DNA of 64,000 nucleotides from contig JACPOR010000006.1 of NCBI GenBank assembly GCA_016191425.1, positions 9,711 through 73,710 on the forward strand, in the 5' to 3' direction. The stretch is from Chloroflexota bacterium (GTDB lineage Bacteria; Chloroflexota; Limnocylindria; Limnocylindrales; CSP1-4). This document shows, piece by piece, positions 10,258 through 14,916 of the stretch (position 1 is the first letter of the stretch; each line of letters opens with the position of its first letter). The notes below the pieces were generated by a model. The model was given only the letters and a program-made list of their open reading frames with translations. It made no database searches and was not told the origin of the DNA. The position numbers and the translations under genes were made by a program.

Positions 10258-12753
10258 CTACTTCGTGTGGGCGTGGGTGCTGCCCGCACCACCGTGGCCA
10301 TGCCCGTGTCCGTCGGCGACGAGGGCTGAGCCGTTTCCGTTGGCCGAGCTCACGGATGCGGGGAGCATCGGCAGGAGCTTCGCGCGATCGACGAACCGTC
10401 CCTCTTCGACGGCGCGCTGCAGCCAGTCGCGTTCGCGGCGAATGTAGCTGACCTCGGTCTCACGGTCGACGGTGGCGAGGGCCATGAGGTCGATCATCGG
10501 CTCCGACCGACTGGTGTGGGCAGTCTCGAACTCGCCGCCGTCGCGGAGCGCGTCGTACGGACAGGCGTCGACGCAGATGCCGCAGAGGATGCACCGACTC
10601 TCGTCAACCTCGTACTTCTGGAGCACGCGGGGCTTGGGCATCAGCGCCCCGGTCGGGCAGGTCTCGGCGCAGCGGCCGCAGGACACGCAGGGCGTGTCGT
10701 TGAGGCTCATGTCGAGCGGCGTCGTCACCAGCGTGTCGAAGCCGATGCGCATGAAGTCGTAGCACGCCGCGCCGACGACCTCGGCACAGACGTTCGCGCA
10801 ACGGCCGCAGTCGATGCAGCGGGATGGCTCGCGCAGGATGAAGGCGTGGCTGTCATCCCGGATGTAGTCGTGGTTGACGCCCGTGAACCGGTTCTCGGTC
10901 ACGCTCCGGTACCCGGCCCCCTGATGGTGCTGTGGCTCGAGCGTCTTGAGCGTCGTCCCGTATTCGATGCCGAGTCGACGGAGGTCGCAGAACCCGATTG
11001 CCTCGCAGGTGCACTGCAGGCAGCGGGTGGACTCGGCGACCGCCTCGGCGAGCGAGTACGGGATTTCGTACTCGACGTAGCTCGCGTTCCGGTCCTCGGC
11101 CTCGAGCGCCTTCATCCGATAGCGCGGCTCCTTGACCTCCGAGGTGAAGGGCACGATCGAGAGGAACTCGGGCTGCGGCTCGGCCAGCGTCTGGCGAGTC
11201 TTGATCTCGGACAGGTCGTGGCCGCGCAGGTATGCGTCGACCGCGTAGGCGGAGCGTCGGCCCTCCGCCACGGCCTGGACCACCGTCGCCGCGCCGATTC
11301 GGACGTCCCCGGTCGCGAACACGCCTCGACGTGTTGTTTCGAAGGTGACCGCATCCGCCTGCAGGCGCCCCTGCTTCGTGGCCGTGATGCCCTCAAATCC
11401 ATGGCCCACCCAGGACAGGTCAGGCCCCTGGCCGATCGCGAGCAGGACACGGTCACAGGGGATGATGAACTCCGTGCCGGCTGCGGGCTCCGGACGTCTT
11501 CGACCCGACGAGTCCGGCGCACCAAGCTGCATCCGGATGAACTCGACCCCGCTGACCTTGCCCGTCGTCGCGTCGACCACGACCCGGGTCGGGCCGGCCT
11601 GGAAGATCGCCGTGACGCCTTCCTCGATTGCCTCATGGACCTCGCCGGACGCGGGCATGTCCTTCATGTCGCGCCGGTAGACGAGCGTGACCTCGCGAGC
11701 GCCCTGGCGAACCGATGTCCGGCTGCAGTCCATCGATGTGAAGCCACCGCCGATGACGACCACCCGCTTGCCCTCGTGACCGGGATAGGGCAGGCCCAGG
11801 GTGGCCGTGCGCAGGTATTCCAGGCCATCGATGACCCCGTCGGCGTCCTCGTTCGGGATCCCGAGCTTGTTGGTGTGGTAGCAGCCGATCGCGATGAGGA
11901 CCGCATCGAAGCCCTGGTACTGCAGGTCGTCCAGCGTGAAATCGCTCCCGAGGCCCTGGTTGCAGACCACCTTTCCGCCGAGCCGGGTGACGGATTCGTA
12001 CTCGGCCTCGAGGACTTCGACCTTCGGCAGACGGTACTGCGGGATGCCGTAGCGGAGCATGCCGCCCGGCGCCGGGTCGCGCTCGAAGACGGTCACGTCG
12101 TGGCCGCTGATGAGCAGGTAGTACGCGGCCGCCATGCCCGCCGGCCCGGAGCCGATGATGGCGACCTTGCGGCCGGTCTTCGGCTGGAGGTCGAACGGGA
12201 CGGGCGGGTCGATCCCGTCGTCGAGCATCTGGCGGAGCACTTCATCGCCCGCGTATCGGTGGCTGTCCCGGATGGCGATGGCCTCGTCCACCTCGTCCCG
12301 GCGGCAGTGGTCCTCGCACGGAGCGGGACAGACGCGGCCGAGGACGGACGGGAAGGGGATGGTCCGCTTGAAGATCCGCGTCGATTCGCGCCAGTTGCCC
12401 TCGGCGTTCTGCTTCAGGAACCCGGGGATGTCGATGTGGCTGGGGCACTTGTTCTGACAAGGCGGCAGACAGTAGGCGTTATGGTCCGAGAAGATCAGCT
12501 CGAGGTTCGTCCTCCGGAGACGTCGCAGCTCCTCCGTCTGCGTCTGGACCTTCATGCCGTCCTCGGCCGCCCGGGAACAGCTGATTGGTGGGTACTCCTC
12601 GCCCTCCACCTCCACGACGCACATCCGGCATGCGCCGAAGCCGGGGAGTTTCGGCTCGTAGCACAGGGTGGGGATCTCGATCCCGTTGTCCCGGCAGACC
12701 TCGAGGATGGTCTGCCCCTCGAGGCCCTCGACGATCTGCCCATCCACTTCCAT
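10258..12753 (-). CDS. NuoG-position fusion protein: NuoG-like N-terminal [2Fe-2S]+[4Fe-4S] domains, GltD-like NAD(P)H/FAD oxidoreductase domain, C-terminal 4Fe-4S ferredoxin repeats; no molybdopterin-like domain
   Basis: From ATG 12753: [10 protein letters not shown]...[25 protein letters not shown] (NuoG/Fdh 2Fe-2S), [14 protein letters not shown] (His/Cys3 cluster), CPAPCEDHC plus [13 protein letters not shown] / [13 protein letters not shown] / ATGDVRIG (GltD-like Rossmann motifs), then three C-x2-C-x2-C-x3-C(P) motifs. The longer ORF start 12936 is TTG and overlaps nuoF. Confidence 0.7.
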   Translation of the reverse strand: [831 protein letters not shown]

Positions 12754-12907
12754 TCGGATGGCCGGCGTGGACTGCGGGCGCTGCGGCGACTGCGTGGTGA
12801 GCAGGTGCTCGGCCAGTGTGTCCTCGCAGGGCGCGATGGTATCGAGGACGGCCGGCGTATCCGGGCGGGACTCGGCGCGCGTGATCAGGTCAGCCAAGGT
12901 CGGGGCC

Positions 12908-14239: not shown

Positions 14240-14916
14240 GCGTCGTCGCCCCCGCCGCCGCTGAGCGATGCCCCGAGGCCGGCCAGGAATGCCTGCTCGG
14301 CCGGACGACGGGCGGCCATCGCCGCCGCTTGCTCCAGCAGGGCCGGAGGCTCGAAGCGAAGGTGCCCGTAGAAGGACGCGGTTCCGTAGATCTGGGCGTA
14401 CCAGGTGCCGGTCACCTGGCTGATCCGCTTGAGCGCGCCAACCGGCAGGTAGCCGTAGTGAGCCTGCGTCGCCTCGAGGATCGCCAGCAGGTGGGCCGGG
14501 TCGTGATCGAAGCCTTCGAGGATGTCATCCACGGCACCAACGTCCACGCCCTCGAAATGGTCGTAGGCGGGATCCGGGACGGTCCGTCCGGAGCGTCGGA
14601 GCGCCGATTCCTCGCGCCGTTCGCCGTAGGTCTCGGCGGCGCCCCAATGGACGTGGAAGCGGCCCTTGGTGTCCATCCCGCCCATGTCGATGCACTCGAT
14701 CGGGCAGGCCTGGGCGCACTGGAAGCAGGTTTCGCACTTGAGGGTGCCGTACTCGTCGTAGAGCAACTGGAGGCGGCCCCTGAATTTCGGGGGAATGTCC
14801 GCCCGGACCTCCGGGTACCGGATGGTGGCCTTCGGCTCGAAGAACCGCCGGAGGGTCAGGGCCATGCCCCGGACCATGCCGGACCCCGGAACGAGGCGTA
14901 TCGGATTCATGCTCAT
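14236..14916 (-). CDS. NuoI-like (single Fe-S motif) fused to NuoE-like N-terminal helical domain
   Basis: From MSMNPIRL: YPEV...PKFRGRLQL...CETCFQCAQACPIEC matches the NuoI N-half (one CxxCxxCxxxCPxxC motif), and the second ferredoxin motif is absent. The C-half (FEGVDVGAVDDILEGFDHDPAHLLAILEATQAHYGYLPVGALKRISQVTGTWYAQIYGTASFYGHLRFEP) matches the NuoE N-terminal domain, but the thioredoxin-like 2Fe-2S (N1a) domain and its cysteines are absent. ATGA overlaps on both sides. Confidence 0.65.
   Translation of the reverse strand: MSMNPIRLVPGSGMVRGMALTLRRFFEPKATIRYPEVRADIPPKFRGRLQLLYDEYGTLKCETCFQCAQACPIECIDMGGMDTKGRFHVHWGAAETYGERREESALRRSGRTVPDPAYDHFEGVDVGAVDDILEGFDHDPAHLLAILEATQAHYGYLPVGALKRISQVTGTWYAQIYGTASFYGHLRFEPPALLEQAAAMAARRPAEQAFLAGLGASLSGGGGDDA

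Follow-up and report, generated by a model that had tools for sequence, protein, structure and literature searches.

A putative transhydrogenase-derived NADPH module inserted into NuoI of complex I in Limnocylindria-type Chloroflexota

Textbook complex I is an NADH dehydrogenase. The question raised by the nuo operon described here is from which donor, and by which route, electrons might enter a complex I whose NADH-oxidizing module departs from the canonical plan in every subunit. The operon lies on the minus strand of a 64-kb stretch of DNA from a Chloroflexota bacterium (assembly GCA_016191425.1, contig JACPOR010000006.1, positions 9,711-73,710; this whole stretch is hereafter the window, and coordinates refer to it). 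It comprises thirteen genes, from nuoA (18892-19353) to nuoN (4154-5686), in the order A-B-C-D-H-[I-N::E']-F'-[G'::I-C]-J-K-L-M-N. A preliminary description of this DNA had singled out the three open reading frames (ORFs) between nuoH and nuoJ as a non-canonical electron-input module made of remodelled Nuo subunits. Pfam and NCBIfam scans confirmed that the three minus-strand ORFs have the positions and domain content that it gave, and our analysis supports a non-canonical module. A Bfu-family cassette (NfnABC/StnABC type) inserted into nuoI is, however, a better description of the three genes than a set of remodelled subunits. The best overall explanation, to which we assign a probability of roughly 0.6, is that this Bfu-derived cassette in nuoI works as part of a proton-pumping NADPH:quinone oxidoreductase. 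The architecture, an Nfn/Stn-derived module spliced into NuoI and found Limnocylindria-wide, is well supported and leaves us in little doubt; the NADPH:quinone function, which is an inference from sequence, we favor by a small measure.

The first evidence comes from the fate of NuoI. The first cassette ORF (14236-14916; 226 aa) had been described as the N-terminal half of NuoI, with a single ferredoxin motif, fused to only the helical N-terminal domain of NuoE, and the profile matches bear this out: residues 17 to 82 match positions 1 to 65 of the 121 in the NuoI model TIGR01971, and residues 130 to 191 match only positions 2 to 63 of the 145 in PF01257 (NuoE). The NuoI half (residues 1 to 92; 14641..14916, minus strand), which is recovered by TIGR01971 and several NuoI equivalog models, contains one CxxCxxCxxxCPxxC motif (C61, C64, C67, C71, and C75; 14692-14736). 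The second NuoI ferredoxin motif, earlier taken to be missing, is in fact present at the C terminus of the third ORF (CxxCxxCxxxCP; 10558-10593). There, the end of the large fusion protein (..EFETA..; 10420..10629, minus strand) is a C-terminal NuoI half, with residues 770 to 816 of the 892-aa ORF matching positions 71 to 117 of TIGR01971 in the NCBIfam scan. The two matched segments, 1 to 65 and 71 to 117 of 121, are thus complementary and nonoverlapping. When residues 1 to 89 of the first protein are joined to the tail of the third, the product aligns with 7ar7_I (22-159 of 169; E = 9.2e-26) in a single stretch that runs over both Cys motifs, the intervening hairpin, and the C-terminal helix. 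The complementary matches and this end-to-end alignment argue that NuoI is split rather than truncated, and the break falls in the canonical protein between ...EDGSRR and TTRYDID.... Neither the operon nor the rest of the window contains an intact nuoI, and the NuoI sequence with its two CxxCxxCxxxCP motifs (for clusters N6a and N6b), elsewhere a single polypeptide, is here present in whole but distributed over two. Judging from these alignments, nuoI is split by an in-frame insertion of three genes and a complete NuoI is encoded on two polypeptides.

Each cluster of the 2x[4Fe-4S] ferredoxin fold draws cysteines from both motifs, so the two NuoI halves must pair if N6a and N6b are to form. 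We infer that they assemble in trans to give the normal 2x[4Fe-4S] fold, and the paired halves would then tie both ends of the peripheral module covalently to the Q-module. In an AlphaFold2 model of the first protein, the lone NuoI N-half is unfolded and of low confidence (predicted local distance difference test [pLDDT] score, below 50; mean pLDDT, 51.7), which is weak evidence given the shallow alignment.

The third ORF (10258-12936, minus strand; Fer2_4, Fer4_20, Pyr_redox_2, and Fer4 repeats), whose product we call G', points to the source of the cassette. Its NuoG-like Fe-S domains, its GltD-type flavin/pyridine-nucleotide domain, and its lack of a molybdopterin-like domain had all been reported, and the domain scans agree. 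The start codon is most likely TTG at 12897, giving 879 aa, since orthologues carry Ile at the Met of the window's MEVDG and share an in-frame upstream peptide (M-A/T-D-L-I/L-T-R-P...LAERLLxTQSPQRPQSTPxIR); from this start, the gene would overlap the stop of the F-like gene by 14 nucleotides. The protein so defined begins with a conserved N-terminal extension of 48 residues (..LAEHLLTTQSPQRPQSTPAIR; 12754..12897), which is conserved in frame in about 30 loci. This is followed by a NuoG/HydA-type [2Fe-2S] domain (12469..12753; PF13510 [Fer2_4], E = 1.1e-19) that aligns with NfnA/StnC and includes the first part of a His-type cluster motif, SDHNAYC (PF10588 positions 1 to 17). Next comes an inserted GltD/NfnL-type domain with two [4Fe-4S] sites (11215..12468; PF14691 [Fer4_20] and PF07992), with a predicted flavin adenine dinucleotide (FAD) site, GSGPAG (12115-12153), and a predicted NADPH site formed by GGGFTSMD (11725-11763) and a second motif (11650-11682). 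A HydA/NuoG-type [4Fe-4S] domain (10630..11022; PF22117 Fer4_Nqo3 and Fer4 families), with motifs at 10987-11022, 10786-10818, and 10654-10689, precedes the NuoI C-half, after which a poorly conserved His/Gly-rich tail and the stop codon (10258..10419) end the ORF; all of these features are on the minus strand.

Along most of its length, G' resembles one subunit of the Nfn and Stn transhydrogenases. Residues 3 to 731 align with 9bov_A (E = 3.6e-165), 8oh5_C (residues 10 to 701 of 1172; E = 6.2e-142), and 9n5u_A (E = 1.7e-141), and the GltD part alone finds NfnA (9n5u_A, E = 4e-117; 9bov_A, E = 2e-113) and StnC (8oh5_C, E = 6e-96). NfnA and StnC are themselves built of a NuoG/HydA-type [2Fe-2S] domain, an inserted GltD/NfnL domain with two [4Fe-4S] clusters, and a further [4Fe-4S] domain (PMC10482914, PMC12018979). 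G' has the combination that marks a Bfu A subunit, NuoG/HydA-like Fe-S domains with an inserted NfnL/GltD FAD-NADPH domain, and the latter has the features expected of the GltD/NfnB(L)/dihydropyrimidine dehydrogenase N-terminal type, namely, Fer4_20, GxGxxG, and GGGxTxMD...YRR...MPA, which make it a predicted member of that class. GSGPAG, GGGxTxMD, and VYRRxxxxMPA are kept both relative to NfnA/StnC and across 61 orthologues, and no Fe-S cysteine of G' varies in any of the 61 sequences. No Pfam or NCBIfam model of the NuoG molybdopterin-like domain matches G', and the alignment with NfnA/StnC ends before their FdhF-like domain; the place of this FdhF/molybdopterin-like domain is taken by the NuoI C-half. 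In canonical complex I, it is the C-terminal domain of NuoG that docks the N-module, and the anchoring through NuoI could plausibly stand in for that role. The extension motif LAERLLxTQSPQRPQSTPxIR, we note in passing, is seen in Limnocylindria orthologues and not in the type represented by two fuller loci, L081 and L083, described below.

The likeness extends to the cassette as a whole. StnABC of Sporomusa ovata (8OH5) and NfnABC of Caldicellulosiruptor saccharolyticus (9BOV) and Thermococcus sibiricus (Tsi; 9N5U) have the same three-subunit order of NuoE-, NuoF-, and NuoG/HydA-like proteins, and their large subunit has the same layout as G', from [2Fe-2S] through the inserted GltD/NfnL domain to the [4Fe-4S] domain, over about 700 aligned residues. 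They differ in being soluble, in having an FdhF-like C-terminal domain, and in having a complete core (flavin mononucleotide [FMN], B1, and the C1 [2Fe-2S] cluster, with B3/B4 for ferredoxin). In contrast, the window version has NuoI halves at both ends, a stripped core, and a position inside a nuo operon. We conclude that the cassette is, as far as sequence relationships can tell, a descendant of a Bfu-family NADPH transhydrogenase of the NfnABC/StnABC type and not a modified NuoEFG.

The stripping of the core is already apparent in the first protein. Its NuoE/BfuC-like N-terminal helical domain and tail (14236..14562, minus strand; core, 14347-14532; PF01257) stop where the profile match stops, at position 63 of 145, and the thioredoxin-like [2Fe-2S] (N1a) domain of NuoE is missing, as the preliminary description had stated. 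The PF01257 part contains no Cys, and the [2Fe-2S] cluster C1 of BfuC is likewise lacking, the thioredoxin-like domain being absent. What remains of the NuoE-like domain folds in the AlphaFold2 model (pLDDT, 70 to 93 over residues 127 to 183). The linker between the NuoI N-half and this domain (AAETYGERREESALRRSGRTVPDPAY; 14563..14640, minus strand) has mostly invariant columns in a 16-sequence alignment, and such conservation would suit a binding interface better than a flexible tether. The same stretch, ETYGERREESALRRSGRTVPD (14563-14640), ranks among the best-conserved parts of the 226-aa protein.

A comparable reduction is seen in the second cassette protein (F'; 443 aa; 12908..14239, minus strand), a NuoF/BfuB-like core matched by PF01512 (Complex1_51K) and PF10589 (NADH_4Fe-4S). 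Its best solved relatives are NfnB (9bov_B), HydB, and StnB (E = 2e-95 to 7e-94), with true NuoF at 6e-78 or weaker. F' covers residues 100 to 526 of the 584-residue NfnB and has neither the N-terminal [2Fe-2S]/Zn domain nor the C-terminal 2x[4Fe-4S] ferredoxin-binding domain (IPR017896) that defines BfuB. On the minus strand, it carries the motifs GRGGAGF (14030-14050), ANGYGADPS (residues 91 to 99; 13943-13969), GAYLLGEET (13682-13708), CGKTIPC (13169-13189), and CDHE (13040-13051). That nuoF is recognizable and has ANGYGADPS at the site of CNADE(S/M)EPG had been recognized earlier; to this we add a change in the N3 site, where the second Cys of CGKTIPC is replaced by Thr. Thus, in place of the NuoF pocket CNADE[S/M]EPG and a four-Cys N3 site, F' has a changed pocket and, in CGK[T/S]IPC...C, three Cys. 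N92-G-Y-G-A-D-P98, C351-G-K-[T/S]-I-P-C357, and C397-D-H-E are invariant or nearly so in up to 72 F' sequences. The residues linked with bifurcation are also altered, with AFM changed to [A/S][S/A/T]x, F281 to Tyr, and Asp-195, which lies beside FMN, to Tyr (Tsi numbering).

In the Bfu family, bifurcation has been assigned to the C1 [2Fe-2S] cluster, the B3/B4 ferredoxin domain, the AFM motif, F281, and Asp-195 (PMC12018979). With all of these and one N3 Cys gone by comparison with the fuller relatives in other lineages (L081, L083, and L082, described below), bifurcation is unlikely in the window version. The preliminary description had likened the module to bifurcating enzymes; this stands as a statement of ancestry, NfnA/StnC and NfnB/HydB/StnB being the best relatives, and is unlikely to hold as one of mechanism, the hardware being absent or altered. 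The three-Cys N3 site and the exchange of the acidic patch point to a changed role for F', which would no longer bifurcate and might persist as a structural or relay remnant or as a secondary NADH site. That F' is simply dead was set aside as the sole reading, given that within Limnocylindria the altered motifs are conserved in their own right.

Is the arrangement real? The same gene order and fusions, a search for which had been suggested at the outset, were found elsewhere in 80 of 80 fetched loci (20-kb stretches), with an identical gene order as far as each contig extends. A search with the NuoI-N::NuoE' fusion recovered 2935 proteins at E <= 0.001. The best 120 of these 2935 matches are homologues of the fusion of about 221 aa, and the source names, where given among these 120, are Chloroflexota or Candidatus Limnocylindrales. 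A relative is encoded in at least 560 species genomes (one genome per species scanned). Across 60 to 72 orthologues, the Fe-S cysteines of G' are invariant and the unusual F' motifs are conserved. The junction regions 12754-12897 and 14563-14640 are conserved in frame. The possibility of an artefact or of decay, in which the cassette would be an assembly chimera, a set of frameshifted canonical genes, or part of a pseudogenized operon, could appeal to the out-of-frame deletion in the window's nuoN and to the many relatives among 50%-identity cluster representatives that are frameshifted long-read ORFs. Against it stand the independence of the 80 assemblies, the in-frame junctions, and the invariant Fe-S ligands; the conserved order, junctions, and cysteines together argue that the cassette is neither a chimera nor a product of decay, so that this explanation is refuted for the cassette and has a negligible probability in general. 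Throughout Limnocylindria-type Chloroflexota, the arrangement is maintained by strong purifying selection.

How would such a complex work? In the NADPH:quinone oxidoreductase that we favor, hydride from NADPH would enter at the FAD of the GltD domain, and electrons would pass through the two GltD clusters to the NuoG/HydA-type clusters, to N6a/N6b, to N2, and to quinone; this NADPH-to-quinone flow would drive proton pumping by an ordinary membrane arm. The leg from FAD through the GltD clusters to the A/C-subunit clusters is experimentally established in Stn and Tsi NfnABC, and NADPH binding by the GltD domains of NfnA and StnC has been structurally characterized (PMC10482914, PMC12018979). 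In Stn, a side branch (C1 and C2) leads nowhere (PMC10482914). The equivalent end of the Stn-type cluster chain would, in the window protein, continue covalently into NuoI.

Several observations weigh against this reading. F' retains the FMN glycine loop, Y180, the glutamates of GEET, one of which selects NADH in NfnB (PMC12018979), and the Arg contacting the phosphate of NADH, so that F' may still bind flavin and even NADH. The preference for NADPH over NADH at the GltD site is predicted from motif conservation only. The nuoN gene of the window looks truncated, with orthologous nuoN intact where loci reach far enough. Finally, every carrier found is an uncultured metagenome-assembled genome (MAG) or a metagenome contig.

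The retained nucleotide site of F' could also mean that the enzyme has two donors, with F' oxidizing NADH via FMN and the GltD domain handling NADPH, both toward quinone; such an enzyme would accept both nucleotides or, acting as a built-in transhydrogenase, bring them into equilibrium. Strong purifying selection acts on F', which is not decaying; GRGGAGF, K75, W76, N92, Y180, E184, E185, R202, N220, and T223 are invariant, and the NADH-contacting Glu-286 and Arg-303 of Tsi NfnB have conserved equivalents (PMC12018979). However, the acidic NADE patch beside the flavin is replaced by residues that are not conserved between the reduced lineages (GYG versus VMS or LMG), and all reduced forms lack one of the N3 cysteines (CGK[T/S/A]IPC). 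Such a pattern is a classic signature of a three-Cys/[3Fe-4S] cluster or of a cluster with a non-Cys ligand. An uncontrolled short circuit between NADH and NADPH would presumably also be costly to the cell. On balance, we consider two donors to be unlikely, though not to a degree that would let us neglect them.

The direction of flow may be questioned as well. If proton-motive force drove electrons from quinol to NADP+, the enzyme would be a membrane-energized NADPH generator, functionally resembling a reversed complex I plus PntAB. Complex I can work in both directions, and some Nuo variants have been proposed to make NAD(P)H by reverse electron transport (PMC4758237); the GltD sites of Stn/Nfn are bidirectional (PMC10482914). 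Set against this, direction is unreadable from sequence, and the window contains no sign of lithotrophy with high-potential donors, the neighbors being housekeeping genes. A reverse-running enzyme seems to us improbable, and NADPH-driven quinone reduction remains the preferred account.

Relatives beyond the Limnocylindria place the window version at the reduced end of a series. They came from a profile-free search of 1.8 billion representatives of 50%-identity clusters, which recovered distant NuoI-N::NuoE fusions that include many frameshifted ORFs and some genuine cases. The split-NuoI operon is also present in a Thermoleophilia MAG (L081) and on a metagenome contig (L083), in both with a complete Bfu core. 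There, the NuoI N-half is fused to a complete NuoE with [2Fe-2S] cysteines, and the BfuB protein (636 to 643 aa) has both accessory Fe-S domains, exceeding F' by N- and C-terminal extensions of 102 to 107 and 66 to 68 residues, and has canonical CNADEGDPGAFM, CGKCVPC, and CALGG motifs. The GltD-containing protein (821 to 831 aa) is 45% identical to that of the window and ends in the NuoI C-half, a fusion shared by L081, L083, L082, and L096. Aldehyde:ferredoxin oxidoreductase genes adjoin both loci, and a POR-family gene also adjoins L081.

These fuller loci, together with the Bfu descent of the cassette and the prediction of Nuo-Bfu in other phyla (PMC9304861), are what might be cited for a Bfu-type complex I in which true bifurcation or confurcation would couple NADPH, NAD(H), ferredoxin, and quinone. 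In the window, such an enzyme is very improbable and close to refuted, as every component for bifurcation or ferredoxin binding is absent or altered (PMC12018979).

An intermediate family from soil metagenomes (L096 [9986-12204], L116, L090, and others) keeps the thioredoxin-like domain of NuoE and has lost the second Cys pair of its [2Fe-2S] site; its F protein is core only, with ANVMSADP or ANLMGADP and CGKAIPC. The two reduced families have in common the loss of the NADE patch (to GYG, VMS, or LMG), F281 changed to Tyr, the second N3 Cys changed to Thr, Ser, or Ala, and CALGG changed to CxxE. A rearranged form occurs on a low-GC contig (L082, 2076-6023): the GltD domain is fused to the C terminus of a BfuB-like protein (1048 aa), its second Rossmann motif is degenerate (GPVALAAD...VSKEARDE), and the NuoI C-half lies at the end of a NuoG-N-like protein of 265 aa. 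What these operons have in common is the in-frame insertion into nuoI of a Bfu cassette of C-B-A type, of which the window has the most reduced version. Candidates that we rejected as divergent variants, being frameshifted ORFs, are P0164, P0181, P0204, P0147, P0161, and P0189; L085 and L086 were likewise rejected as separate variants, being frameshift-fragmented copies of the L081 type. Frameshift-ridden representatives and some long contigs, from high-GC long-read assemblies, mimic divergent or fused variants. A further observation concerns the stretch between the GltD fusion gene and nuoJ, where, in some loci of the intermediate soil family (L116:14807-15532 and L117:8697-9692), about 1 kb of unrelated sequence breaks up an operon that is tight elsewhere; in L116, it includes a 242-aa ORF.

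How far does this architecture differ from known variants of complex I? Schut et al. 2022 predicted Nuo-Bfu in Geobacter, Deferribacteres, Planctomycetes, and Nitrospirae (PMC9304861), with Bfu-type E/F/G genes midway in a 14-gene nuo cluster proposed to replace the canonical NADH module (PMC9304861). Their survey required the C-terminal ferredoxin domain of BfuB, and confurcation of NADH and ferredoxin was predicted (PMC9304861). GltD, glutamate synthase, and NuoI go unmentioned in the main text of that paper, which thus describes neither a GltD-type A subunit nor a split NuoI, and Nuo-Bfu is attributed there to neither Chloroflexi nor Actinobacteria (PMC9304861). The cassette of the window agrees with Nuo-Bfu in its place in the cluster and differs in its incomplete core, whereas L081 and L083 would qualify as Nuo-Bfu, with a GltD insertion and a split NuoI in addition.

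Relative to the canonical N-module (Nqo1/2/3 and Nqo9 of Thermus thermophilus; NuoEFG and NuoI of Escherichia coli), the F core is homologous, and the N-terminal [2Fe-2S]/[4Fe-4S] domains in the G slot, the full NuoI sequence, and ordinary Q- and P-module genes are shared. In contrast, the window has no N1a domain, no NuoG molybdopterin-like domain, a three-Cys N3 site, and NuoI on two polypeptides, and it carries an additional FAD/NADPH domain that brings two further clusters. The exchange of an input device on a conserved 11-subunit core has parallels in FpoF of the F420H2 dehydrogenase and in the ferredoxin-binding NdhS/NdhV/NdhO of cyanobacterial NDH-1, but their input proteins and donors are unrelated to those of the window, and they involve no splitting of NuoI. 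A related idea in a different complex comes from Degli Esposti 2015, who described a GltD-related flavoprotein in the NuoI position of mbx-like operons from Thermotoga and proteobacteria (PMC4758237). Like the window, they have a GltD-type NAD(P)H flavoprotein at that position of a complex-I-related membrane complex. They are, however, of the Mbx/Mrp type and ferredoxin linked, and the GltD protein substitutes for NuoI, whereas the window keeps NuoI, in split form, has a full quinone-type Nuo, and has GltD inside an NfnA/StnC-like subunit beside E- and F-like subunits. Neither a split NuoI nor a GltD-containing Nuo input module was found described in the full-text literature searched, which covers few of the subscription journals.

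Taken together, the comparisons indicate a complex I variant with a predicted Nfn/Stn-derived NADPH module in NuoI and with fuller, ancestral-looking forms in other lineages. We know of no proton-pumping complex I with a dedicated NADPH site that has been characterized so far. More tentatively, and at somewhat less than even odds, Limnocylindria, an abundant soil and freshwater class, and at least one further soil lineage may respire via a proton-pumping NADPH:quinone oxidoreductase, with anaerobic relatives (the Thermoleophilia MAG and others) keeping an ancestral and possibly bifurcating or confurcating machine that links NADPH, NADH, ferredoxin, and quinone. If so, respiration in a very widespread class of uncultured bacteria could draw directly on NADPH from catabolism; alternatively, a proton gradient could make NADPH. 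The gene-within-gene architecture would be a rare and clear case of modular evolution, with a 2x[4Fe-4S] fold presumably reassembled in trans and a split NuoI that presumably provides a built-in covalent anchor in place of the NuoG docking domain. The full, intermediate, and stripped forms would also make a natural experiment on the gain and loss of bifurcation hardware when aerobes adopt enzymes of anaerobes.

The remainder of the operon is largely conventional in a window with a G+C content of 65-72%. All 10 membrane-arm and Q-module genes (A, B, C, D, H, J, K, L, M, and N) have Pfam matches and lie in a single operon. The earlier statement that all 11 core subunits are present holds only if the split NuoI is counted and is compromised by nuoN. 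On the minus strand throughout, these genes are nuoA (18892..19353; PF00507, E = 2.4e-31), nuoB (18161..18901; PF01058, E = 3.8e-27), nuoC (17614..18159; PF00329, E = 3.8e-35), nuoD (16372..17601; PF00346, E = 3.2e-85), nuoH (14913..16250; PF00146, E = 2e-104), nuoJ (9663..10301; PF00499), nuoK (9346..9663; PF00420), nuoL (7424..9349; PF00361 and PF00662), nuoM (5697..7307; PF00361), and nuoN (4154..5686). The nuoB sequence carries the N2 cysteines (CCAIE...GDC...GCPP), and NiFe-type Cys pairs are absent from nuoD by inspection of its sequence. With the operon proteins as queries, tblastn detected no further copy of nuoE, nuoF, nuoG, or nuoI anywhere in the 64-kb window. The junctions of nuoH with the first cassette gene and of the latter with the F-like gene are both ATGA overlaps, which is consistent with translational coupling.

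Relative to its orthologues, nuoN has an out-of-frame internal deletion of ~190 nucleotides near 4505, and its Pfam match reaches only to position 267 of 294. The frame shifts after ...GIPPLAGFFA to ...LWAGLVVTTILTV...AIG*, and ~60 residues present in orthologues (K-AYVILAAVQA...FYYLRVVVYMFMRE...HGRL) are lacking; DNA identity to L001 ends at ~4506. The break is either an assembly deletion or a genuine truncation. NuoH is long in the window (445 aa versus 321 to 372 aa in L081-L083), and NuoB, at 246 aa with an N-terminal extension of ~70 residues, likewise exceeds its counterparts there (176 to 201 aa). Directly upstream of nuoA, on the same strand, is a gene (19605-20915) of PF02636 (Methyltransf_28; E = 4.6e-49), the NDUFAF7/MidA family, whose mitochondrial member is known as an arginine methyltransferase of complex I assembly.

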